In this document: piece after piece, positions 5,032-41,582 of the stretch
Position numbering within the stretch: the stretch's first letter is position 1
How the letters are laid out: every line of letters starts with the position of its first letter
DNA from: a virus
Taxonomy: Duplodnaviria; Heunggongvirae; Uroviricota; Caudoviricetes
Virus record (IMG/VR): IMGVR_UViG_2574180019_000006
Strand: one strand, 5' to 3'
Length of the DNA stretch: 64,000 nt
Program-made: the position numbers and the translations under genes
Notes under the pieces: generated by a model
Told to the model about the DNA's origin: nothing
Database searches by the model: none
The model's input: the letters and a program-made list of their open reading frames with translations, nothing else

Positions 5032-7347
5032 ATGATAAGCATCGTAAAACGTAACGGCCAAACAGAGCCGTTATCCGAAGAAAAATACAACCGCGTCGTA
5101 ATGTATGGCGTAGAAGGCATTCGTGGTGTAAGCGCATCCGCTGTAGCAATGGGAGCTGCGGCCAGCATTTTTGATGGGATGACCACCAGCCAGTTGCATG
5201 AGGCTTTGGTTAAATCTGCCGCTGATTTGATCTCACCAGAAGCACCAAATTACTCACAGGTGGCTGCCCGCCTGAACATTTTTAAAATCCGCAAAGATGC
5301 CTTCGGTCGTTACGACTATCCGAACTTCTACCAACACATTGTCAAGAACGTTAACAAGGGCGTTTATGACAAGGATTTGCTGACACATTATTCGTTTGAA
5401 GAGATCGAAGAACTCGGCAATTACATTAAGCCTAAACGTGACGATCTTTTTGGCTATGCAGCTACGGTGCAGTTGCAAAGCAAATACCTCGTTCAAAACC
5501 GTGTTACTGGTGAGATTCATGAGGGGCCGCAACATATCTATATGCTGGTAGGCATGTGTCTGTTCCAGAATTGGGAAGACGACTGCGCTGGCAAAACACG
5601 TATGGAGATGGTCAAAGGTTTCTATGACGTTACAAGTACGTTCAAACTGTCTCTGCCCACACCAATCATGGCCGGCGTCCGTACTCCTACCCGTCAGTTC
5701 TCCAGTTGTGTGCTGATTGAGTCTGGCGATAGTCTGAAAGGGATTAGTGCAGCTTCAGCCGCAATTATCGACTACGTTTCACGTCGTGCTGGAATTGGTA
5801 TTGGTTTTGGCCGTATCCGTGCGCTGGGCAGCGAGATCCGCAATGGTGAAGCCACCCATACCGGAGTTATTCCATTCCTGAAGCATTTCCAGACGGCTGT
5901 TAAATCTTGTTCGCAAGGTGGTGTTCGTGGTGGCGCAGCAACAGCGTTTTACCCGATCTGGCATCTTGAAGTTGAAAGTCTGCTGGTGGTGAAAAATAAC
6001 CGTGGTATTGATGAAAACCGCGTTCGCCATCTTGATTACGGCGTCATGAGTAACCGTCTAATGTACCGTCGACTCGTCAGAAGCGAGAACATCACTCTGT
6101 TCAGCCCGCATGATGTGCCTGATATGTACGAAGCCTTCTTCACAGACCAGGAGCTGTTTGAAAAGCTGTACCATAAATACGAAGCCGATGATTCAATTCG
6201 CAAGAAGTCAGTACCTGCCATTGAGCTGTTCTCATCTCTGATGCAGGAACGAGCGTCCACGGGCCGAATTTATATTGCGAACGTCGATCATATTAATGAG
6301 CATGGCGCTTTCATTCCTGCTCTTGCACCTGTCCGCCAGTCAAACCTGTGTATGGAGATCACCCTACCCACCCGTCCACTGGCATTTACCGACGACCCGA
6401 ACGGTGAGATCGCGCTATGCACTTTATCCGCTTTTAACCTCGGAGCCATCCGTTCACTGGAGTCTCTTAAAGAGGTGGCGTTCTATGCCGTTGCTGCACT
6501 GGATTCGTTACTGGATTATCAAGACTATCCGATGGAGGCAGCCGAAGTGCCTGCCAAAGCTCGTCGTAGCTTGGGAATTGGTGTAACCAACTTTGCTTAT
6601 TACCTGGCAAAGAATGGCGTTCGTTATTCTGATACCGCTGGCAATAAACTGGTGCATGAAACGTTCGAAGCTATCCAGTATTACCTTCTTGATGCCAGCT
6701 GCCGACTTGCTGAAGCAAAAGGTGAGTGTGACTGGTTTGAGCAGACCAAATACGCAATTGGTCAGTTGCCGATCGACCATTACCGTTCTTCATTAGACGA
6801 AAGTGGCGAAACCAACTTTGAGTTAAAGATGCCGTGGGAAGAACTGCGTGAACGTATTGCAAAATACGGCCTTCGCAACTCCACACTGACGGCACAAATG
6901 CCATGCGAGACTTCCAGCCAGATCACTAATTCCACCAACGGCATCGAACCGCCTCGTGGCCCGGTGTCGGTGAAATCTTCTAAGGACGGCATCGTTAAGA
7001 TGGTCGTGCCTGAGTTTGAAAAACTGAAGGAACAGTATGAATACCTGTGGGATATGCCGGACAACCGCGGCTATCTGACAAAGGTGGCGATCATCCAGAA
7101 GTTCTTTGACCAGGCTATTTCAGCCAATACCAACTATGACCCTTCTCGCTTTGAAGGCGATAAAGTCCCAATGATGACGCTACTGTCAGATTTGCTTCTC
7201 GCCTACAAGATGGGAGTTAAAACGCTTTACTACCACAACACCAGAGATGGTGCAGGAAAGCGTGATGACGACGAACCGCAGAATCCACTGGCGCAAGCTG
7301 TAGCCGTCGAGCCAGAAGATGAGTGCGACGGAGCCTGCAAAATCTGA
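5032..7347 (+). CDS. nrdA: Ribonucleotide reductase class Ia large subunit
   Basis: 771 aa; N-terminal ATP-cone-like VKRNGQTEPLSEEKY; C-terminal tail ...EDECDGACKI matches NrdA redox-active C-terminus; followed by nrdB. Confidence 0.9.
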   Translation: MISIVKRNGQTEPLSEEKYNRVVMYGVEGIRGVSASAVAMGAAASIFDGMTTSQLHEALVKSAADLISPEAPNYSQVAARLNIFKIRKDAFGRYDYPNFYQHIVKNVNKGVYDKDLLTHYSFEEIEELGNYIKPKRDDLFGYAATVQLQSKYLVQNRVTGEIHEGPQHIYMLVGMCLFQNWEDDCAGKTRMEMVKGFYDVTSTFKLSLPTPIMAGVRTPTRQFSSCVLIESGDSLKGISAASAAIIDYVSRRAGIGIGFGRIRALGSEIRNGEATHTGVIPFLKHFQTAVKSCSQGGVRGGAATAFYPIWHLEVESLLVVKNNRGIDENRVRHLDYGVMSNRLMYRRLVRSENITLFSPHDVPDMYEAFFTDQELFEKLYHKYEADDSIRKKSVPAIELFSSLMQERASTGRIYIANVDHINEHGAFIPALAPVRQSNLCMEITLPTRPLAFTDDPNGEIALCTLSAFNLGAIRSLESLKEVAFYAVAALDSLLDYQDYPMEAAEVPAKARRSLGIGVTNFAYYLAKNGVRYSDTAGNKLVHETFEAIQYYLLDASCRLAEAKGECDWFEQTKYAIGQLPIDHYRSSLDESGETNFELKMPWEELRERIAKYGLRNSTLTAQMPCETSSQITNSTNGIEPPRGPVSVKSSKDGIVKMVVPEFEKLKEQYEYLWDMPDNRGYLTKVAIIQKFFDQAISANTNYDPSRFEGDKVPMMTLLSDLLLAYKMGVKTLYYHNTRDGAGKRDDDEPQNPLAQAVAVEPEDECDGACKI

Positions 7348-7366
7348 CATATGGTGGGGGATATCC

Positions 7367-8705
7367 CATAAGCGCTAACTTAAGGGTTGTGGTATTACGC
7401 CTGATATGATTTAACGTGCCGATGAATTACTCTCACGATAACTGGTCAGCAATTCTGGCCCATATTGGTAAGCCCGAAGAACTGGATACTTCGGCACGTA
7501 ATGCCGGGGCTCTAACCCGCCGCCGCGAAATTCGTGATGCTGCAACTCTGCTACGTCTGGGGCTGGCTTACGGCCCCGGGGGGATGTCATTACGTGAAGT
7601 CACTGCATGGGCTCAGCTCCATGACGTTGCAACATTATCTGACGTGGCTCTCCTGAAGCGGCTGCGGAATGCCGCCGACTGGTTTGGCATACTTGCCGCA
7701 CAAACACTTGCTGTACGCGCCGCAGTTACGGGTTGTACAAGCGGAAAGAGATTGCGTCTTGTCGATGGAACAGCAATCAGTGCGCCCGGGGGCGGCAGCG
7801 CTGAATGGCGACTACATATGGGATATGATCCTCATACCTGTCAGTTCACTGATTTTGAGCTAACCGACAGCAGAGACGCTGAACGGCTGGACCGATTTGC
7901 GCAAACGGCAGACGAGATACGCATTGCTGACCGGGGATTCGGTTCGCGTCCCGAATGTATCCGCTCACTTGCTTTTGGAGAAGCTGATTATATCGTCCGG
8001 GTTCACTGGCGAGGATTGCGCTGGTTAACTGCAGAAGGAATGCGCTTTGACATGATGGGTTTTCTGCGCGGGCTGGATTGCGGTAAGAACGGTGAAACCA
8101 CTGTAATGATAGGCAATTCAGGTAATAAAAAAGCCGGAGCTCCCTTTCCGGCACGTCTCATTGCCGTATCACTTCCTCCCGAAAAAGCATTAATCAGTAA
8201 AACCCGACTGCTCAGCGAGAATCGTCGAAAAGGACGAGTAGTTCAGGCGGAAACGCTGGAAGCAGCGGGCCATGTGCTATTGCTAACATCATTACCGGAA
8301 GATGAATATTCAGCAGAGCAAGTGGCTGATTGTTACCGTCTGCGATGGCAAATTGAACTGGCTTTTAAGCGGCTCAAAAGTTTGCTGCACCTGGATGCTT
8401 TGCGTGCAAAGGAACCTGAACTCGCGAAAGCGTGGATATTTGCTAATCTACTCGCCGCATTTTTAATTGACGACATAATCCAGCCATCGCTGGATTTCCC
8501 CCCCAGAAGTGCCGGATCCGAAAAGAAGAACTAACTCGTTGTGGAGAATAACAAAAATGGTCATCTGGAGCTTACAGGTGGCCATTCGTGGGACAGTATC
8601 CCTGACAGCCTACAAAACGCAATTGAAGAACGCGAGGCATCGTCTTAACGAGGCACCGAGGCGTCGCATTCTTCAGATGGTTCAACCCTTAAGTTAGCGC
8701 TTATG
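7367..8705. mobile_element. IS186 (IS4 family) insertion sequence, ~1339 bp
   Basis: Terminal inverted repeats cataagcgctaacttaagggttg (7367-7389) and caacccttaagttagcgcttatg (8683-8705); flanked by 10-bp direct repeat ggggatatcc (7357-7366 and 8706-8715); encodes 372-aa transposase recognised as IS186. Confidence 0.85.
7416..8534 (+). CDS. insL: IS186 transposase
   Basis: 372-aa ORF filling the IS; N-terminus MNYSHDNWSAILAHIGKPEELDTSARNAGALTRRREIRD recalled as IS186 transposase. Confidence 0.85.
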   Translation: MPMNYSHDNWSAILAHIGKPEELDTSARNAGALTRRREIRDAATLLRLGLAYGPGGMSLREVTAWAQLHDVATLSDVALLKRLRNAADWFGILAAQTLAVRAAVTGCTSGKRLRLVDGTAISAPGGGSAEWRLHMGYDPHTCQFTDFELTDSRDAERLDRFAQTADEIRIADRGFGSRPECIRSLAFGEADYIVRVHWRGLRWLTAEGMRFDMMGFLRGLDCGKNGETTVMIGNSGNKKAGAPFPARLIAVSLPPEKALISKTRLLSENRRKGRVVQAETLEAAGHVLLLTSLPEDEYSAEQVADCYRLRWQIELAFKRLKSLLHLDALRAKEPELAKAWIFANLLAAFLIDDIIQPSLDFPPRSAGSEKKN

Positions 8706-8754
8706 GGGGATATCCCCACCTTCTCTTTGATTTGTAAGCCTTGTTTAAACACAT

Positions 8755-8775
8755 AAGATAACAACTTGTTTAAAC
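8755..8775. promoter_or_regulatory. Palindrome AAACAA-N-TTGTTT upstream of nrdB (operator or 5'-UTR hairpin)
   Basis: ataacaacttgtttaaac ~30 nt upstream of ATG; same motif recurs upstream of many ORFs. Confidence 0.4.
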
Positions 8776-8802
8776 GCACCAAAAAAGAAAAAGGAAAAAC
8801 AC

Positions 8803-9945
8803 ATGTCATATTCAACGTTCCGTTTGGGTGCTAATGATGCAACCAAAGAGCCTATGTTCCTCGGACAATCTGTCAACGTGGCACGTTACGATCAGCAAAA
8901 ATACCGTGATTTTGAAAAGTTGATTGAACGTCAATTGTCTTTCTTCTGGCGGCCGGAAGAAGTTGATATTTCGAGCGATCGTATCGACTTCAACACGAAG
9001 CTGCGGGACCACGAACGTCACATTTTTCTGAGCAATCTCCGTTATCAAACGTTACTCGATTCAGTTCAGGGACGTAGTCCAAATGCAACGCTGCTGCCGC
9101 TTATCTCTATTCCTGAACTGGAAACGTGGGTTGAAACGTGGTCTTTCTCTGAGACTATCCATAGCCGCAGCTACACCCACATTATTCGTGGCATGGTGGA
9201 CGATCCGAGCATTGTTTTTGACGGTATTGTTACGGATGAAGAAATCATCAACCGAGCGATCAGTATCTCTGCTGAATATGACAGGCTTTATGGGATGACC
9301 TGCGAGCGCCAGTCGTTAGGTGAGAAGGAATTTGAGCGTCTGTACGTAAATGAATATGGCTGGGAGCCATACCCTTTGCATCGTCAGCTTTTCCGCACGT
9401 TGGTGTCCATTAATGCGCTTGAGGCGATCCGTTTCTACGTAAGTTTTGCATGTACGTTTGCCTTTGGTGAACGGAAGTTGCTTGAGGGTAACACCAAAAT
9501 TATGCGCTTTATTGCCCGTGATGAAGCTCTGCATTGCGAAGGAACTGAACGCATGATCCGCTTCATGCGTACCGGTCGCGAAGGTTTATTGTGGAAAGAG
9601 ATTGCTGCTGATGAAGAAAACGTCATTTACGACACCATGAAATCAGTCGCCGAACAAGAAATGAACTGGGCAGACTATCTCTTCAAAGACGGTTCGATGA
9701 TTGGTTTAAACGCGGATATTCTCAAAACCTATGTAAAATACCGCACCAATCTGGCTATGAATCGTCTTGGCCTGAAGGCTTTATTTCCAGAAGTTACCAC
9801 TGATCCGCTGGTCTGGATGAACAAGTGGTTGTTAACCGACACACTGCAAATTGCACCACAAGAGGCAGAGCAAAGCACATATCTGGTAGGTCAGATCGAT
9901 TCTACCGTGGATAAGGCTTCTCTAAGCCAGTTTGCAGACCTGTAA
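8803..9945 (+). CDS. nrdB: Ribonucleotide reductase class Ia small subunit
   Basis: 380 aa; near-colinear with E. coli NrdB as recalled ([83 protein letters not shown]). Confidence 0.9.
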
Positions 9946-19735: not shown

Positions 19736-20302
19736 ATGTGCAAGAAATGCAAAGCGATAGCTGATGAACAAAACGCCTTATTCGAAGAAATGGATGCTAA
19801 TGAACTGGTCAAAATGTTAGCCATTCTTCGAGGAATAGAAGACGTTTCCATATTTGAGAGACTGTTTACAATACTTAATTTTAATTCCACCTTTGAAGAG
19901 CCAACTCAGATTGTAGCTTTGGCACACCATTTCGGTGTTCATTACCTTGCTGAAAAAGAGAGAGCTGATAAGTTGCAAGCGACTTTGGATATGGTGAGCG
20001 AGACTCAAGAAACTGATGACGGTAACAAAAGTGAGACGATTATTGCCAGCAAAGATCGTGAAATTGCCGGGCTTAAATCCTCTCTAACGATGTTGATGTC
20101 TGCAATCAACCTTATGTCTTCTAAAGCAGGTTCTAAAATGCCATCACTAAACAGCGACGATCCGATGGCCGTTCGCCAGCTTTTAGGTGCAATGGCCGAC
20201 CAGCTCGACGACACAAAGAGTCGCCTTGAAGACATGATGCGGGAGCTCACGCATCGCCATGACTTGAATAAGCAGCCGCACAAAACGCAATACGCACTCT
20301 AA
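19736..20302 (+). CDS. hypothetical protein (188 aa)
   Basis: ORF preceded by conserved ggaaaaacacATG leader. Confidence 0.45.
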   Translation: MCKKCKAIADEQNALFEEMDANELVKMLAILRGIEDVSIFERLFTILNFNSTFEEPTQIVALAHHFGVHYLAEKERADKLQATLDMVSETQETDDGNKSETIIASKDREIAGLKSSLTMLMSAINLMSSKAGSKMPSLNSDDPMAVRQLLGAMADQLDDTKSRLEDMMRELTHRHDLNKQPHKTQYAL

Positions 20303-20319
20303 TACAGCACCAGTCGACA

Positions 20320-20343
20320 GGGGGCGACAGCCCCCATTTTTAC
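20320..20343 (+). terminator. Rho-independent terminator
   Basis: gggggcgacagccccc hairpin followed by attttta. Confidence 0.5.
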
Positions 20344-20443
20344 GCCTTAAATCTGCTGTAACGCCTATGAATGCAGCTTTTATGCCTTTTCAAGTTTGCG
20401 ATAATTACACCAATCAGAAAACAAATTATTTAATGGTGTAATT

Positions 20444-23340: not shown

Positions 23341-23394
23341 CCACCTTTTCTTATTTGTGAAAATAACCACAACTAGAAAACAACGGAGTTAAGA

Positions 23395-24036
23395 ATGTCT
23401 AGTATTTCCGAAGCTCATATGTTCGCCGCTGGCGCTCATGGTGGCGTTGGTCAGAAAAGAAAATATACCGGCGAAGACTACATCAACCACCCGGTTGCGG
23501 TCCGAGAGATTGTTGCATTGCATGACGGAACCGTGGAGATGCAAATCGCGGCGCTTCTGCATGATGTGGTCGAAGACACCCATGTAACCATAGAGATGGT
23601 TCGTGATCACTTCGGTGAGCGCGTAGCTGAAATGGTTCAGGCTCTGACCAACATTGCAAGGCCAGAAGACGGCAATCGAATACAGCGTTTCATCATCAAT
23701 GTCCGGGAGCTGGAGCAAAATCTCGACATGCAGACGCGCATGATCAAGCTGGCTGACCTGCTCGACAATACCTCTTCTATCGTGAGTCGCGATCCCGAGT
23801 TTTCAGCTGTCTACCTCGCAGAGAAAGAACTGATGCTGGACGTACTCTTTCACGGCAAAGAGATTGGTGCCAACGCTGATGTTGTCGAGTACATGGAGAG
23901 GATAGGTATAGAACACCCGTTGCTATTAAGCGCAATGGCGAAAGTCACTGAAGGTATTGCGCTTCTGAAACCGGTACACATCAAACGTTATGAAAAACAC
24001 AAATCGCTGATCTGGAGCGCGTGGGAGGCTGCATGA
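23395..24036 (+). CDS. HD-domain phosphohydrolase, RelA/SpoT-hydrolase-like (putative small alarmone hydrolase)
   Basis: HPVAVREIVALHDG ... AALLHDVVEDT matches the RelA/SpoT HD (p)ppGpp-hydrolase signature; 213 aa, no synthetase domain; RBS acggag. Confidence 0.6.
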   Translation: MSSISEAHMFAAGAHGGVGQKRKYTGEDYINHPVAVREIVALHDGTVEMQIAALLHDVVEDTHVTIEMVRDHFGERVAEMVQALTNIARPEDGNRIQRFIINVRELEQNLDMQTRMIKLADLLDNTSSIVSRDPEFSAVYLAEKELMLDVLFHGKEIGANADVVEYMERIGIEHPLLLSAMAKVTEGIALLKPVHIKRYEKHKSLIWSAWEAA

Positions 24037-24575
24037 AGGTCGAAAAAATAGATGTTCTTTCCTTTGTGCTGACGGATCTGGAACGCCTCGATCCGGTTCG
24101 AGTAATGATTGAAAACTACGAACCTGGTAAGGGAAGAATCACCATCATCTGCTACGGAAAAGCGTGGACTGCGGCTTGGTTTGCTATGGGCGGTGATGAT
24201 GTGCAGACGTTCATTAAGCGGGTCAGCAACGAGTATCTAATCGGCTATTTCGACTCTCAACTGCGAAGCACGGTCGACGATGACAACGATGCAAATCTGC
24301 TTTTCGTGAAGTCAGAAATCATAAAGTTACGAAGAGAGAGAGAAATCGACGCCGTACTGGCTCGTGAAATGTGGGACGAGGCGGAAAACGCCGATGACGT
24401 AAAAGAAAGCTGCTGTTGTTTCGGCGTCGGTAACAAACTGCTGAATCTCTTTGGTGATGATCCGTGGTATGCCGACTGGCCAACGGTACCAAACCCGAAA
24501 TACCAGTATCTGGAACGCATTGTGAACGCGGTACGTGAAGGGCTGAAAGAGTTAGACAAGTTAGAGGCATCGTAA
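24033..24575 (+). CDS. hypothetical protein
   Basis: ATG 24033 preceded by gggagg; overlaps upstream stop. Confidence 0.45.
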   Translation: MKVEKIDVLSFVLTDLERLDPVRVMIENYEPGKGRITIICYGKAWTAAWFAMGGDDVQTFIKRVSNEYLIGYFDSQLRSTVDDDNDANLLFVKSEIIKLRREREIDAVLAREMWDEAENADDVKESCCCFGVGNKLLNLFGDDPWYADWPTVPNPKYQYLERIVNAVREGLKELDKLEAS

Positions 24576-24997
24576 TGAGAGAGAAAATCAAGAACCCGGT
24601 CGTCGTATTGTATAAACGGGAAACCAGCGATTCTTATGCGGTATCCATCACTGATGGAAGCCAGAACATGCACGATGGTCTGCTAATGGCCTCCGTATCT
24701 CCTGATGATTCTGACTACCCTTTCGCCACTTTCGCTATGGTTGGTTACTACATGGCTGCCGAAATTGAGAAGTTGCGTGTTGAGCTGGAGACCGTTAAAC
24801 AGCGGGAAAAGGATCTGTTTATGGAAAATGTTCGACTTAAGTCAGGTATAGCCGGTCTGATACACCTCGGTATTCGATATGCGGATGTTGAGGTCATGAA
24901 AATTGCTGGAGATGCCCAGCTTTCTACTCCATGCACTGACAGCATCATAAACAGCATTGCAGCAGGCATTTTCACCAAAGAGGGGGCAGCACGATGA
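24575..24997 (+). CDS. hypothetical protein (140 aa)
   Basis: TAATG start/stop overlap; RBS agagg. Confidence 0.45.
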   Translation: MREKIKNPVVVLYKRETSDSYAVSITDGSQNMHDGLLMASVSPDDSDYPFATFAMVGYYMAAEIEKLRVELETVKQREKDLFMENVRLKSGIAGLIHLGIRYADVEVMKIAGDAQLSTPCTDSIINSIAAGIFTKEGAAR

Positions 24998-25832: not shown

Positions 25833-26212
25833 TGCATAAATCAGTAGCCGGTGAGCTTCAGAAGGAAGTCGATAATACCACTGATCTATTGGACGATATT
25901 TTAAGCATTCTCGCGCTGCTTGAGGCTGGTGATTGGTCAGAACATTGCACTAAAACAGAGCTAGGCGGTCGGCTTGAAAGAGAGATTACACGACTGATTA
26001 GCGATGCCCAAAATGATTTGTCACCTGAGCATCTCCCCTGCGATGTAGTTCTTGTGCCAGGGATGAGGATACACGAAGGCGTCAGAACGAAAACATTATT
26101 AACCGCATTACAGAGAAGAGCCGAACTAAGCTCGCGGATAAAGTTGATGCCATCCAAAATATTTGATGTCGTCAAATTTACGCCATCGCAACATACTGAG
26201 AGAGATAAATGA
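25829..26212 (+). CDS. hypothetical protein (127 aa)
   Basis: Overlapping start/stop with neighbours. Confidence 0.4.
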   Translation: MMHKSVAGELQKEVDNTTDLLDDILSILALLEAGDWSEHCTKTELGGRLEREITRLISDAQNDLSPEHLPCDVVLVPGMRIHEGVRTKTLLTALQRRAELSSRIKLMPSKIFDVVKFTPSQHTERDK

Positions 26213-26841
26213 GCACGGTAGCGAAAGATCTCACAGAAGATATTCTCAATGAAATTATTGCTGGTGCAAATACCTCGCTTGAGCAACTTCTTGCGTTAGC
26301 TCTGAGAGCCGAACGTCGAGACAGAAAACGTTTTTATGAGCGATTGCCAGGGAAGCGACCAGATAGATCGGATGAAGAAGGTTGCGATATAGACTACATG
26401 GAGCCTTCAGAGATTTATCAACTTGGTAAAGATGACGGCTGGAACGCTTATCACGATGCTGTGATGAAGTTGGATGAAAAAGTTAAACCTCTTTCTCGAC
26501 CGGTAGATCACGGTTTCCGCGATAACTGCGAATGCTCTAGTTGCCAGACCACGGCCCGTATTTGTTCCGAATTGACAGATAAGTCCAGCCTAATCTACGA
26601 AGTTAATGTAGGCGGTAATACATGGGTCGAATGCACAAGAGCTGCATACGTAAGAGCAAAAGACAAGGGTGAATTAACCAGAGTTGTTACCCATCACCCA
26701 AATGATGAGCTTAAAGATCACCAGATTAGAGAACTGGTGAACGAGTTGCGGGATATTGCGGTTCAGTACCACGGAGCGCAGCAATTGCGGGAGAAGATTG
26801 CCAGAGCAGTGAACAACTCAATTAGATCAGAAAGTATGTAG
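26209..26841 (+). CDS. hypothetical protein with Cys cluster (CECSSCQTTARIC)
   Basis: 210 aa; RBS gagagag; last gene before left boundary of host-like block. Confidence 0.45.
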   Translation: MSTVAKDLTEDILNEIIAGANTSLEQLLALALRAERRDRKRFYERLPGKRPDRSDEEGCDIDYMEPSEIYQLGKDDGWNAYHDAVMKLDEKVKPLSRPVDHGFRDNCECSSCQTTARICSELTDKSSLIYEVNVGGNTWVECTRAAYVRAKDKGELTRVVTHHPNDELKDHQIRELVNELRDIAVQYHGAQQLREKIARAVNNSIRSESM

Positions 26842-31516: not shown

Positions 31517-31816
31517 ATGTTGAACATTACCCAAGCCTACCAGGTGGCATTGATCAGTTCATCTCATACATCAGAGGAAGATGCTCGCCGATTCATGATC
31601 GCAAGCAATGAGCTGGATTGGGTTTCACAAATTGACGGCGGTTGTATTGTCCACGCCGGGTTACAGGATGATGTCTGGAAAGAGGACTTGCGTCGATATG
31701 GTATATCCGAAGGCGCAATTGCTAACATTCAGAAAGTACTTGATGTAGGCTTTGACTGTGTACATTTTGATTGTGGTGCGCCGATCGTTGAAGGGCTTGA
31801 GTGCTGGTGTTGGTAG
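31517..31816 (+). CDS. hypothetical protein (~100 aa)
   Basis: ATG 31517 preceded by ggag; ORF track begins at GTG 31508. Confidence 0.4.
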   Translation: MLNITQAYQVALISSSHTSEEDARRFMIASNELDWVSQIDGGCIVHAGLQDDVWKEDLRRYGISEGAIANIQKVLDVGFDCVHFDCGAPIVEGLECWCW

Positions 31817-31947
31817 AGTGTATAAGCGGATCAATGAGTTACGGAAACAGTTAATAATGAGGAGCTTGTAATAAGCTGTATACCCTAGAAAAGCTAGACT
31901 AGGGAATAAAATGACGTGAAACTGGGCGGGACAGTAAATAATTCCGA

Positions 31948-33177
31948 ATGATAATTGAACAAATAACCCCTTGCTCGGAGCTTGGAATGACTGATACCGC
32001 TTTTTCAAAATCGTTACAAAAAGAAGTCGATCCTGAGCAGTACTTGGCGCTAAAGAATTTAGATGACAGCTCGGTTCATGCTATTGCCCGTGACGATATC
32101 ATCTGCCCCATTTGCAAAGTTGGAGGTGGTTCGTTCGTTAGAGCCACTAGGAATGGTGGCTATCACAAGAAGGCGCATTTCAGATTTACCGGTGAAGATG
32201 GTCAAGGCCATCATCCATCATGTGATTTCTATGGAGATAGATTAACATCTGAGGTGAAGCAGCACCTTGTCTCATTCACAAAAGATCGAACAAAGTATTC
32301 GCAGGTAATACGAAAGCTGGTCTGTGCCGGCATACAGGAAGGGATATTTACTCAAGAAAAAATGTGGCAGATGAGGGAATGGTTCTTCAATAAGCGAAAG
32401 GATTCCACATTTGAAATATGGTTAGAAAGCGAGCATTTAGACTGGCTTTATTATATTAGTGGGTTACGTGATGCATATCTAGCATGGACAACTCCTGATA
32501 TTCTACCTTTCGCGCCCATTCAGGTTACTGTCCCTGGTTTTTCTTGGAGGCGTGCGATTGACAAAGAGGTGCTAAGAGTTCACATCAAGACTCTCCAGCA
32601 ATTGCGTGAAATTTCAGTCTCACATAGTGACATTGCTGTAATCTTAGAACACATAAACAATAATCGTGACCGCACAATTCTCGATCCATCGCATTTGGAG
32701 GACGAGATAAGTAAGACCTATAAGCTTACTAGTTTTGTGATGGGCAATTACATTGAGTTTCAGACAAAAACGGTTAGCGACAGAGCATACGGGGAAGCTA
32801 AGTTTCTGGCATTTGCAGCACTTTTGTTGTTCGTGTCAGATTGGGACCTCAACATTGCTATTGGTAAGTTTTCTAAGATTGCCAGAGTGAAGGAGGTTGA
32901 TGACATGCTGGCTGGTAATTTCATTGGTCTTAATCCTTACTTCCGATACGACCTGGCTAATGCAGTGAAGAGATTGCAGGATAACTGGCCGATTGAATAC
33001 CAAGAGTTGGAGCATTGGAATGTTGAGAAATCCATGCGTGACGCATATGAAAAGTGGCGTGCGACAGAGCCTGAATTCGCTCCACCCCTATTGCCAGACT
33101 TGTATATTGCCAAACATGAGAAAGAAGTCGCACAAGACGAGCAAGTCAGGCAGTGGATTAAGAACGGGGATGTTTGA
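31948..33177 (+). CDS. hypothetical protein with N-terminal Cys/His zinc-ribbon-like motif (alternative start 31987)
   Basis: 409-aa ORF; CPICK...HHPSCDF cluster; AT-rich upstream region without the phage-type leader; ggag RBS before ATG 31987. Confidence 0.5.
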   Translation: MIIEQITPCSELGMTDTAFSKSLQKEVDPEQYLALKNLDDSSVHAIARDDIICPICKVGGGSFVRATRNGGYHKKAHFRFTGEDGQGHHPSCDFYGDRLTSEVKQHLVSFTKDRTKYSQVIRKLVCAGIQEGIFTQEKMWQMREWFFNKRKDSTFEIWLESEHLDWLYYISGLRDAYLAWTTPDILPFAPIQVTVPGFSWRRAIDKEVLRVHIKTLQQLREISVSHSDIAVILEHINNNRDRTILDPSHLEDEISKTYKLTSFVMGNYIEFQTKTVSDRAYGEAKFLAFAALLLFVSDWDLNIAIGKFSKIARVKEVDDMLAGNFIGLNPYFRYDLANAVKRLQDNWPIEYQELEHWNVEKSMRDAYEKWRATEPEFAPPLLPDLYIAKHEKEVAQDEQVRQWIKNGDV

Positions 33178-33299
33178 GTGTAATTAGCTTAATCAATCAG
33201 TTGATAATGGCGGTCACAATTTGATTCTTTTCTATAAGAATCCGTTGATCGCCACTACTCCCCTTCCATAGCTGCAATCATACCCTTAAATATCAATAG

Positions 33300-39812: not shown

Positions 39813-40337
39813 TTAAAATGGAAGGATTCGTTCAACCCAATCGAAGAAAACAAGTATTTTTCTGCCGTCTTCTAACTTAAGAGTGACCTGGCAAGCATCA
39901 ACGCCTCTTGACACCCCTTCTATTTCACGACCGTCTGTCATGTAGACCCTTATAGATTGGTCGTTTTGATAAGCCTTGCGACATATCGCAAAAAAGTCAC
40001 GGCGTGATGGCTGATTGTCAACATAGTCTGGATGTATTGTTAGCCTACCTTTGAACTCGCGAGCAATGTCATCGATTACACCTGATTCAATTGTGCTAAT
40101 GCGCTCAAGTGGGAGTCTTATACGATTTTCTTTATCATATGGAATCGGGCATAAATCTAGCTTATTGCGTGAAGGCATTGTCCCCTGAACGTACATGCAA
40201 AACACCTGACCGTCTTCAAGCGTGACTCTTACAGGAATGTTGTTCTTCCGCCAGAACATAAGTATGTTCTCAGCATGTTCGTAGTCTCGCGGCCAGACTT
40301 CAGCCGGTATGCCGTAGGTGATGTCCAATGTTCTCAT
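39813..40337 (-). CDS. hypothetical protein (174 aa), AT-rich cassette
   Basis: ATG overlaps stop of upstream gene (ATGA); RBS aagag; internal duplicated beta-rich segments (VRVTLEDGQVF / VTLKLEDGRKI). Confidence 0.5.
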   Translation of the reverse strand: MRTLDITYGIPAEVWPRDYEHAENILMFWRKNNIPVRVTLEDGQVFCMYVQGTMPSRNKLDLCPIPYDKENRIRLPLERISTIESGVIDDIAREFKGRLTIHPDYVDNQPSRRDFFAICRKAYQNDQSIRVYMTDGREIEGVSRGVDACQVTLKLEDGRKILVFFDWVERILPF

Positions 40338-40948
40338 TCTGATACTCTTAGAGGTGTTTTCAGCAATCCAAATTTAAATTCTTTATTACCAACGACCAAG
40401 AAGGGGACTTCAACATAGATTTTTTTATCGACGGATTTAGAGTTCGCTGTTTTCTTGATGTCGCGAACGATACGTTTTGTTGTGTTTTCATCAATAAACA
40501 ATACCTTCCCACTGGTATTCCCTTCAGTCTTAGCATAAGTGACAATAGGTTCTTCATTGCCAACTCTGATGTTCACTTGGCAACCCGTTGTAGCCATTTC
40601 ATCACAATAGAGTGTACCGTCTTGAATTTCTAAAACAATTCCAGATGGCTTCATGGCCTCGTTAGAGCTTACATTAGCGTTTTCTGGTACTGCGGTCCCG
40701 TTAATTTGCAACCGTAATCTTTCTGTTCCTGCATGAAGTATTGTTTCTTCTGCGTTATCTGAGAATCTATACCAGACTGGTTGAATCAGACCTCGTGATT
40801 TGTATTTTAGTACGTCTTCAGAAGTATACATGCTGTACGTTTTTTGCATGTCAGAGACGAAATCTGATAATGCGTTGGCGGAAAACGCCGGGAGGCATAT
40901 ACAAGCAAGGAGTAACGAAAGTTTCATTTTCATATCATGATAATCCAA
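40334..40948 (-). CDS. putative secreted or lipoprotein (~200 aa), AT-rich cassette
   Basis: N-terminal MKMKLSLLLACICLPAFSA signal-like segment (possible lipobox LLAC or SPase I site AFSA); ORF track begins at TTG. Confidence 0.5.
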   Translation of the reverse strand: MDYHDMKMKLSLLLACICLPAFSANALSDFVSDMQKTYSMYTSEDVLKYKSRGLIQPVWYRFSDNAEETILHAGTERLRLQINGTAVPENANVSSNEAMKPSGIVLEIQDGTLYCDEMATTGCQVNIRVGNEEPIVTYAKTEGNTSGKVLFIDENTTKRIVRDIKKTANSKSVDKKIYVEVPFLVVGNKEFKFGLLKTPLRVSE

Positions 40949-41437
40949 TTATTTAACATCACACTTTCTAAGTTTTTCTATTTGTTCTAATTTTTCATGA
41001 TCATCATTTAGATTTCCTTTGACTATCTCCGTTTCAAGTTTGCTGATTAGCATGTTAAGTGCGTTGTAGTTATTGCATTTTACTTTGTAGGCGTAGTATG
41101 ACCTTGTCCCTGGTTTTTGTACACCCATATCATTAAAGTTAGAGCTTAAAGTATAACCTTCAAGTTCAACCCCTTTTATTGTTGGAAGAATTATATTTAA
41201 TGGTTCTAATTTAAATGGGTAGATATAAATATGTGATATGAAGTACTCTTCTGAAGAGATTTTCTTCATGTCTTTTGTGATTGAAACTGAATATTTACGG
41301 TCCCGAGCGATATAAAATTTTGTACATTTGTACGGCTCTAAGTTGAATAGATAATATCTGTCTTTAAAAAGAACATCTTTTCCATGTGATATTTTATGTC
41401 GTAAAGAGTTAATTATTTTGTTTATAGAAATACTCAT
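40949..41437 (-). CDS. hypothetical protein (162 aa), AT-rich cassette
   Basis: Tightly packed with neighbours; Lys/Asn/Ile-rich composition. Confidence 0.5.
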   Translation of the reverse strand: MSISINKIINSLRHKISHGKDVLFKDRYYLFNLEPYKCTKFYIARDRKYSVSITKDMKKISSEEYFISHIYIYPFKLEPLNIILPTIKGVELEGYTLSSNFNDMGVQKPGTRSYYAYKVKCNNYNALNMLISKLETEIVKGNLNDDHEKLEQIEKLRKCDVK

Positions 41438-41582
41438 CTACAGTATCCGACCTTAGTTATCAATTGAAAAGCCTACAAATATCGTTCAGCCAATCAAGAA
41501 ATTTTTTCAGCCGGAGGTATGTACTTCAAAAAATGTGATGAATGTCACATGCAGGTGCTCTCATACACCTGCATGTAGACTA

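Follow-up and report, generated by a model that had tools for sequence, protein, structure and literature searches.

IS186 in a terminator-like hairpin between nrdA and nrdB of an SSU5-like phage-plasmid

In the window analysed here, a 64,000-nucleotide stretch of the IMG/VR viral record IMGVR_UViG_2574180019_000006, the two genes of a class Ia ribonucleotide reductase are separated by a 1.35-kb block. Two key questions raised by this locus are: (i) how the block came to lie between the genes; and (ii) whether it affects the expression of the downstream gene. The upstream gene, nrdA (5032-7347, + strand), is intact, encodes an alpha subunit of 771 amino acids and ends in a TGA stop at 7345-7347; its product scores 1300.6 bits against NCBIfam NF006578 (cut-off 813) and has the Pfam domains ATP-cone, Ribonuc_red_lgN and Ribonuc_red_lgC. 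The downstream gene, nrdB (8803-9945, + strand), is also intact and encodes a beta subunit of 380 amino acids, with a match to PF00268 and a score of 609.1 bits against NF006576 (cut-off 346). The lengths of NrdA and NrdB are those of CYRAN_69 and CYRAN_70 of Escherichia phage Cyrano, respectively.

The bulk of the block is a complete IS186 of 1339 bp (7367-8705, + strand). From tip to tip, all 1339 of its 1339 bases are shared with IS186A, IS186B and IS186C of E. coli K-12 MG1655, which belong to the IS4 family and which NCBI also annotates as IS186B/IS421, and 100% matches are found in many E. coli genomes. The left terminal inverted repeat, CATAAGCGCTAACTTAAGGGTTG, lies at 7367-7389 on the + strand, and its perfect complement, the right repeat, lies at 8683-8705 on the - strand; neither has a mismatch. 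The element begins with this 23-mer at 7367 and closes with its reverse complement at 8705, and these are the only two exact matches in the 64-kb window, one per strand, with none expected from shuffled sequences. The sole long open reading frame between the terminal repeats is the transposase gene insL (7422-8534, + strand; 370 amino acids from an ATG, in a frame open from a GTG at 7416), whose translation equals InsL1 of K-12. InsL scores 93.7 bits against Pfam PF01609, DDE_Tnp_1 (cut-off 23), and 133.3 bits against NCBIfam NF033592, the IS4-family transposases (cut-off 115).

A preliminary description of the locus had called the element a complete IS186 with both terminal inverted repeats, and had proposed aligning the repeats and the transposase to reference sequences. 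The match to the K-12 copies and to InsL1 bears this out, and from the K-12 identity together with the intact InsL it follows that the element is a standard, intact IS186. Its identity to active K-12 copies implies that this copy should be competent for transposition. By every defining feature that can be tested the element is IS186, and the only soft point is a target slightly off the published consensus, discussed below. A composite transposon or a larger mobile unit was also considered, but the window has only one pair of IS186 ends and both flanks are collinear with Cyrano, which excludes such a unit.

The borders of the element point to transposition as its route of entry. According to the preliminary description, a direct repeat flanks the element, starting 9 bp past the nrdA stop, and the insertion lies between nrdA and the nrdB leader. 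All of this is seen at the locus. A gap of 9 nt (CATATGGTG, 7348-7356) separates the nrdA stop from the left copy of GGGGATATCC (7357-7366, + strand), and the right copy, identified from the sequence and by a repeat search, occupies 8706-8715 on the same strand. The left copy makes up the last 10 bp of a hairpin remnant (GGTGGGGGATATCC, 7353-7366, + strand) whose intact form is present in the empty site of relatives. The exact direct repeat returned by the repeat search is 13 nt long (TGGGGGATATCCC, 7355-7367 and 8704-8716, spacing 1349); it exceeds the 10-bp duplication because the first C and the last TG of the element coincide with bases of the target. The duplication measures 10 bp if the 23-bp inverted repeats bound the element, and at most 12 bp, and a 10-bp match at precisely these two ends would arise by chance with a probability of about 1e-6 (4^-10, by arithmetic).

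Relatives that lack the element provide the empty site. In Cyrano and in CMS-2020a, read base by base, the site is TGACATATGGTGGGGGATATCCCCACCTTCTC, with the 10-mer present once, and the uninterrupted target GGTGGGGGATATCCCCACC also occurs once in each. Because the 10-mer is single-copy in the empty sites, the flanking 10-mers are a true target-site duplication rather than a pre-existing repeat. The preliminary description had named relatives in which the 10-mers prove not to be a duplication as able to overturn its account, and the comparison comes out in its favour. These observations also bear on the alternative of an assembly artefact, in which a chromosomal IS186 of the host was misjoined into the phage-plasmid contig. 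IS186 is a multi-copy repeat, with identical or near-identical copies in 2221 of 5426 complete E. coli genomes (~40%) and a median of 3 copies per genome having any, and such repeats do cause misassemblies. A misjoin, however, would not duplicate 10 bp of a single-copy target and place the copies precisely at the two inverted-repeat tips; moreover, the flanks are collinear on both sides, and an independent public assembly, CP116917.1, has IS186 at the identical position. We therefore regard a misjoin as very improbable, and take the block to be a true insertion.

The replicon that received the element was compared with Escherichia phage Cyrano (OV696614): over the full length of the window the two align at 96-99% identity, the exceptions being the IS and a few exchanged accessory modules. 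Cyrano encodes terminase, capsid and tail genes as well as RepA, ParA and ParB, and the nrdA region of the window is 77.6% identical to that of Salmonella phage SSU5. The collinearity with Cyrano, the combination of phage and plasmid genes and the match to SSU5 thus identify the replicon as an SSU5-like phage-plasmid, in keeping with its earlier designation as a phage. The K-12 copies IS186A, IS186B and IS186C are chromosomal, whereas the window copy resides on this phage-plasmid. SSU5-like elements are common in E. coli as "plasmids" of roughly 110 kb, with 175 records in PLSDB and 204 genomes in RefSeq that contain this end of nrdA. Members of the SSU5 group distinguished solely by an IS acquired or lost are already on record (bioRxiv 10.1101/2025.09.12.675607; the text of that study contains 0 occurrences of IS186 or nrdA), and in experimental evolution IS186 has been observed to jump into the consensus site of a plasmid (PMC6925257).

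The target itself is of the kind that IS186 is known to use, with a qualification. The published motif is GGGG(N6/N7)CCCC, with a 6- or 7-bp core at 57 of 59 sites (Lee et al. 2016, PMC5009759); cores of 4 or 5 bp account for the 2 other sites among the 59, and 7 of the 59 have one or two mismatches in the palindrome (PMC5009759). Read plainly, the window target is GGGGG-ATAT-CCCC, with a core of 4/5 bp. The preliminary description had presented the target as GGGG-ATAT-CCCC and as consistent with IS186 preference; this holds for the kind of target, a G-run facing a C-run, but the short core is atypical against the published N6/N7. The K-12 copies offer a second way to read the site. All three lie in perfect GG|GG-N6-CC|CC targets, with a 10-bp duplication composed of GG, N6 and CC, and the cuts at the window site lie in the same register with respect to the C-run. 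In that register the window target becomes TG|GG-GGATAT-CC|CC, with a single mismatch (the outermost G is T), and the canonical 10-bp stagger predicts a duplication at precisely the place where it is observed. The one-mismatch N6 reading therefore accounts for the cut positions better than GGGG-ATAT-CCCC does. The consensus of saiSree and colleagues from 2001 is reportedly broader, (G)>=4 N3-6 (C)>=4, and the window site would fit it exactly.

Like the K-12 copies, which also lie in short G-run/C-run hairpins, the window copy has entered a potential RNA structure; IS186C sits in a terminator-like hairpin after nupC, as the window copy does after nrdA. The empty site contains the 19-nt hairpin GGTGGGGGATATCCCCACC, with a G+C-rich stem of 7-8 bp followed by the T-rich TTCTCTTTGA, and a terminator scanner calls it terminator-like. 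It folds at -17.4 kcal/mol (z = -2.7), and both of its junction derivatives fold no better than shuffled sequences. nrdA is followed by a homologous hairpin in two further phages, pJN2-26 of Klebsiella (GGGGAGATATCCCC) and SSU5 of Salmonella (GGGGAGAAATCCCC), and in these two SSU5-type elements the homologous position carries a perfect GGGG-N6-CCCC. The retention of the hairpin, though the nrd region is only ~77% identical, suggests a real function at the end of the nrdA transcript.

The same site has been occupied in another replicon. In the plasmid p113_MLI102 (CP116917.1) of E. coli MLI102 from Mali, which belongs to the same SSU5-like backbone family and matches the 6-kb flanks of the window at 99.6%, IS186 lies at the identical position with the same GGGGATATCC duplication, in the opposite orientation. 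That copy has 5 missing bases and 1 substitution, all in C/G homopolymer runs, and its insL is frameshifted; these differences may be sequencing or assembly errors. The parsimonious reading is that the window and CP116917.1 represent two independent insertions, because IS186 is documented to strike hot spots repeatedly and in both orientations. Entry into a given site in either orientation has been described (PMC5009759; PMC6925257; PMC3045373), and the lon promoter, fimA and menC are hot spots directed by the GGGG...CCCC palindrome (PMC5009759; PMC3045373; PMC3861542). Because the cut positions are equal in both orientations, it is the target, not the orientation of the element, that fixes the stagger.

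We consider the site to be a minor recurrent hot spot of IS186. With its 2 insertions it resembles lon, fimA and menC, at which independent insertions recur precisely and in either orientation, although the recurrence is far weaker (2 records among ~380), and it differs from hot spots of that type in being a terminator-like hairpin between two genes rather than a promoter or coding sequence. The motif GGGG(N3-7)CCCC occurs at only 2 loci in the whole 108-kb Cyrano genome, so that recurrence at this site needs no selection to explain it.

A different history would have IS186 ancestral at the site, with precise excision in the relatives, so that the window and CP116917.1 would carry a single old insertion that was later inverted. 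This scenario could draw on the occupation of the same site in two plasmids and on the lon promoter, from which IS186 has been observed to excise precisely (PMC3861542), but several observations argue against it. The hairpin is single-copy in Cyrano, in CMS-2020a and in the Klebsiella and Salmonella SSU5-type elements, and a synthetic junction query detected no IS186-occupied site among 435 PLSDB records of the Klebsiella/Salmonella lineage. The window element shows zero divergence from the K-12 copies, an in-place inversion would require recombination across 23-bp inverted repeats, and independent insertion at one site in both orientations is documented behaviour of IS186. An ancestral element thus has hardly any probability in our estimate, and two independent insertions remain the preferred reading. 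As to the 435 records in themselves, IS186 seems to be largely an element of E. coli and Shigella, so that their empty sites say little about the site.

Within E. coli, the occupied site is rare. An orientation-independent junction query, composed of 230 bp of nrdA flank and the 23-bp inverted repeat, was matched in full by 1 of the 175 PLSDB records that hold the flank, namely CP116917.1, with 172 of the 175 covering at least 80% of the query. The corresponding count for RefSeq E. coli was 0 of 204 genomes holding the flank (at least 80% covered in 200). Among the matches listed for the two collections, all except that of CP116917.1 end at the first base of the IS. Together these amount to ~370 related E. 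coli records without IS186 at the site, in collections that overlap. An orientation-specific junction query of 551 bp was covered to at least 80% by no RefSeq E. coli record, and the exact junction 29-mer had 0 matches in viral, species-representative genome and metagenome contig collections.

Over ~4.65 kb, the matched flanks of the insertion show 100.0% identity to NZ_MG904996.1, a plasmid without the IS. This plasmid was considered as an IS-free twin of the whole window and rejected, the identity being 100.0% only locally and 98-99.7% across the window, with module differences; consequently, recency cannot be quantified from a twin. The lack of divergence between the element and other IS186 copies, the 100.0% identity of the flanks to NZ_MG904996.1 and the absence of the insertion from relatives nevertheless lead us to conclude, from the sequence comparisons, that the insertion between nrdA and nrdB is real and recent. 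The preliminary description had derived its recent date from the intact duplication. The date stands on the identity of the element, the identity of the flanks and the IS-free relatives, whereas a 10-bp duplication is weak evidence for recency.

From these observations the following course can be proposed. We are highly confident that the element came from an IS186 resident in E. coli, which transposed into the SSU5-like phage-plasmid as the latter replicated in an IS186-carrying host. By analogy with the IS4 family, whose studied members are Tn5 and Tn10, the DDE transposase InsL would bind the 23-bp ends, excise the element and join it to a target, the GGGG and CCCC runs on either side serving for recognition. 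The sequence itself shows that IS186 entered the G-run/C-run hairpin 3′ of nrdA and that a staggered cut gave the canonical 10-bp duplication. The insertion was a simple one: it left nrdA and nrdB whole, and elsewhere the backbone keeps the gene order of IS-free relatives.

Transcription around the site may nonetheless have changed. The insertion would split the terminator-like hairpin, so that the left junction loses it and the right junction keeps a shortened form, TGGGGGATATCCCCA, with the T-rich tail CCTTCTCTTT (8704-8728, + strand; called in the terminator-like scan). The right junction also restores a GGGG(N4/5)CCCC motif, and its fold is weaker than that of the empty site. With the hairpin split and insL pointing the same way as nrdA, transcripts of nrdA probably now extend into insL. 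The downstream gene would lose any read-through from nrdA and keep its own conserved leader, the 87 bp between the insertion and nrdB, which are untouched. This leader contains a candidate sigma-70-like promoter, TTGTAA-16 nt-TAAGAT (8732-8759, + strand; 8/12 matches), proposed on the basis of conservation: the TTG, the TAAGAT and their spacing are invariant in an alignment of Cyrano, Klebsiella pJN2-26 and Salmonella SSU5. A sigma-70 scan of positions 7000-9000 and of the empty site called no promoter at the threshold of 9 of 12, and the nrdB candidate falls below it. If the element at 8732-8759 is the nrdB promoter, the IS may mainly remove read-through, with a modest effect; the effect on nrdB may thus be small, since the interval from the insertion to the gene retains a conserved promoter-like element.

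An effect on the phage-plasmid as a whole is probably small as well. A class Ia reductase is encoded by nrdAB on the chromosome of the E. coli host, and a relative of the window replicon, p4_0.2, is maintained as a plasmid even though an IS3-family element interrupts its nrdA. These two facts indicate that the nrd genes are not needed for the plasmid state, and they are also the grounds for expecting a small net effect of IS186.

The opposite view is that the insertion is functional and was selected, being either strongly polar on nrdB and the genes downstream, or a source of transcription that re-drives them from a promoter in IS186 or at a hybrid junction. Polarity on nrdB, or its renewed expression owing to the insertion, had been raised as a possibility in the preliminary description. 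The arrangement of the region could favour such an effect: nrdA, nrdB and the genes that follow, among them genes of nucleotide metabolism (MazG-like, thyX and dhfr), lie close together in one orientation; insL points the same way as nrdB, with only weak terminator-like sites on the + strand of the IS; no consensus-grade promoter is called between the IS and nrdB; and the site has been struck twice. A literature search for an outward promoter in IS186 returned nothing usable. Recurrence, however, is explained by target specificity alone, with 2 candidate sites per 108 kb, and the opposite orientations of the two insertions argue against selection for an orientation-dependent promoter effect. 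Further evidence against selection comes from the very low frequency of the insertion (1/175 and 0/204), from the retention of the conserved TTGnnn-16-TAAGAT element downstream of the insertion and from the dispensability of nrdA in p4_0.2. On balance we think it unlikely that the insertion is functional and selected, and prefer a recent insertion of small net effect.

A more speculative idea is that the conserved nrdA hairpin serves as a standing landing pad for IS186 in the SSU5-like phage-plasmids of E. coli, with packageable elements ferrying IS186 in virions and insL expression coupled to induction. IS186-loaded elements would stay packageable because all phage and plasmid genes are left intact. 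If the idea were correct, loss of the nrdA terminator would let nrdA transcription of the lytic cycle enter insL and couple transposition to phage induction, and IS186 could travel between strains inside virions. We rate this as quite improbable.

With both the element and its way of choosing targets familiar, and no gene interrupted, the insertion is an ordinary finding of a kind already known, and it leaves the understanding of IS186, of ribonucleotide reductase genes and of phage-plasmids unchanged. It is mildly notable only in that one base position has been reused in two phage-plasmids and that the 10-bp stagger is fixed on an off-consensus site. For annotation, its value is that the 1.35-kb block between nrdA and nrdB can be labelled as IS186 plus its duplication and not as phage-plasmid cargo. 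The locus also illustrates cleanly, in a natural setting, how IS186 chooses its target, with a fixed 10-bp stagger set by a G-run/C-run hairpin. It indicates that IS186 tolerates a shortened or one-mismatch motif, and that one base position can receive what appear to be two independent insertions in opposite orientations. An SSU5-like phage-plasmid, finally, can acquire a host IS without loss of a gene.

A minor observation concerns the nrdB leader, which contains two direct repeats, CTTGTTTAAACACA and CTTGTTTAAACGCA, 25 bp apart (8740-8778, + strand) and conserved across genera. The motif CTTGTTTAAAC was considered as a dispersed, genome-wide phage promoter or operator motif and rejected, its only exact copies being the two in this leader; at one mismatch it has 5 matches against 1.6 expected, a number reached by 3 of 100 shuffles.

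The target rule of IS186, GGGG...CCCC, may have a general side-effect, namely insertion into terminator hairpins. The site that holds the K-12 copy IS186C (NC_000913.3, 2514273-2515617) is AAAAAAGCCGGGGATAATTCCCCGGTTTTTTTA, which lies after nupC and has the look of a bidirectional intrinsic terminator. The hairpin that follows nrdA, into which IS186 inserted in the window, has a homologue in SSU5-type elements of Klebsiella and Salmonella that is a perfect GGGG-N6-CCCC target (L009 2544-2557 and L010 4356-4369, respectively), and IS186 was found at this hairpin in that lineage in 0 of 435 PLSDB records, presumably because the hosts are without IS186. Within the window itself, the sole further target that conforms to the IS186 consensus is GGGGGCGACAGCCCCC (20320-20335), with an N6/N7 core; it is unoccupied, and sits in a short segment (20245-20379) that stands in place of about 1 kb of sequence of the IS-free relative Escherichia phage Cyrano.

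Inside the IS186 copy, the start codon of the transposase gene insL is overlapped by an inverted repeat of 14 nt (7414-7427 and 7486-7499; 86% complementary, 58 nt apart). In IS10 and IS50 the start codon is known to be sequestered in transcripts that read through from outside, and by analogy the repeat could act in this way on insL. The IS186 copy of the E. coli plasmid CP116917.1 differs by five missing bases and one substitution, all of them in C/G homopolymer runs, and its insL is frameshifted as a result; this pattern suggests homopolymer errors of long-read sequencing, not genuine decay.

The nrdB leader contains two direct repeats, CTTGTTTAAAC(A/G)CA, located 25 bp apart (8740-8753 and 8765-8778), each enclosing the palindrome GTTTAAAC, together with a candidate promoter (8732-8759). 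Also present is an invariant block, ATAAGATAA, which in comparison with Klebsiella pJN2-26 and Salmonella SSU5 is more conserved than the surrounding coding DNA. The repeats and the ATAAGATAA block may constitute a promoter or operator of nrdB; the element bears no obvious likeness to the NrdR box.

In the related SSU5-like plasmid p4_0.2 (NZ_CP023851.1), an IS3-family element lies within nrdA (locus about 1050-2360), and the PLSDB gene table for this plasmid is without an nrdA CDS, which indicates that the plasmid state does not require the nrd genes.

Five accessory-module segments of the window, at 20245-20379, 23369-24622, 26007-26500, 31807-33201 and 40325-41469, lack a megablast match in Cyrano; the sole exception, at 24622-24777, is weak (81%). 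One segment encodes an HD-domain protein (23395-24036), and several ORFs of these segments, including one of 409 aa at 31948-33177, gave no Pfam match. Finally, at window 47602/47603 the sequence matching the last base (108379) of the linear Cyrano record is directly joined to that matching its first, a continuity that fits a genome of circular or circularly permuted form.
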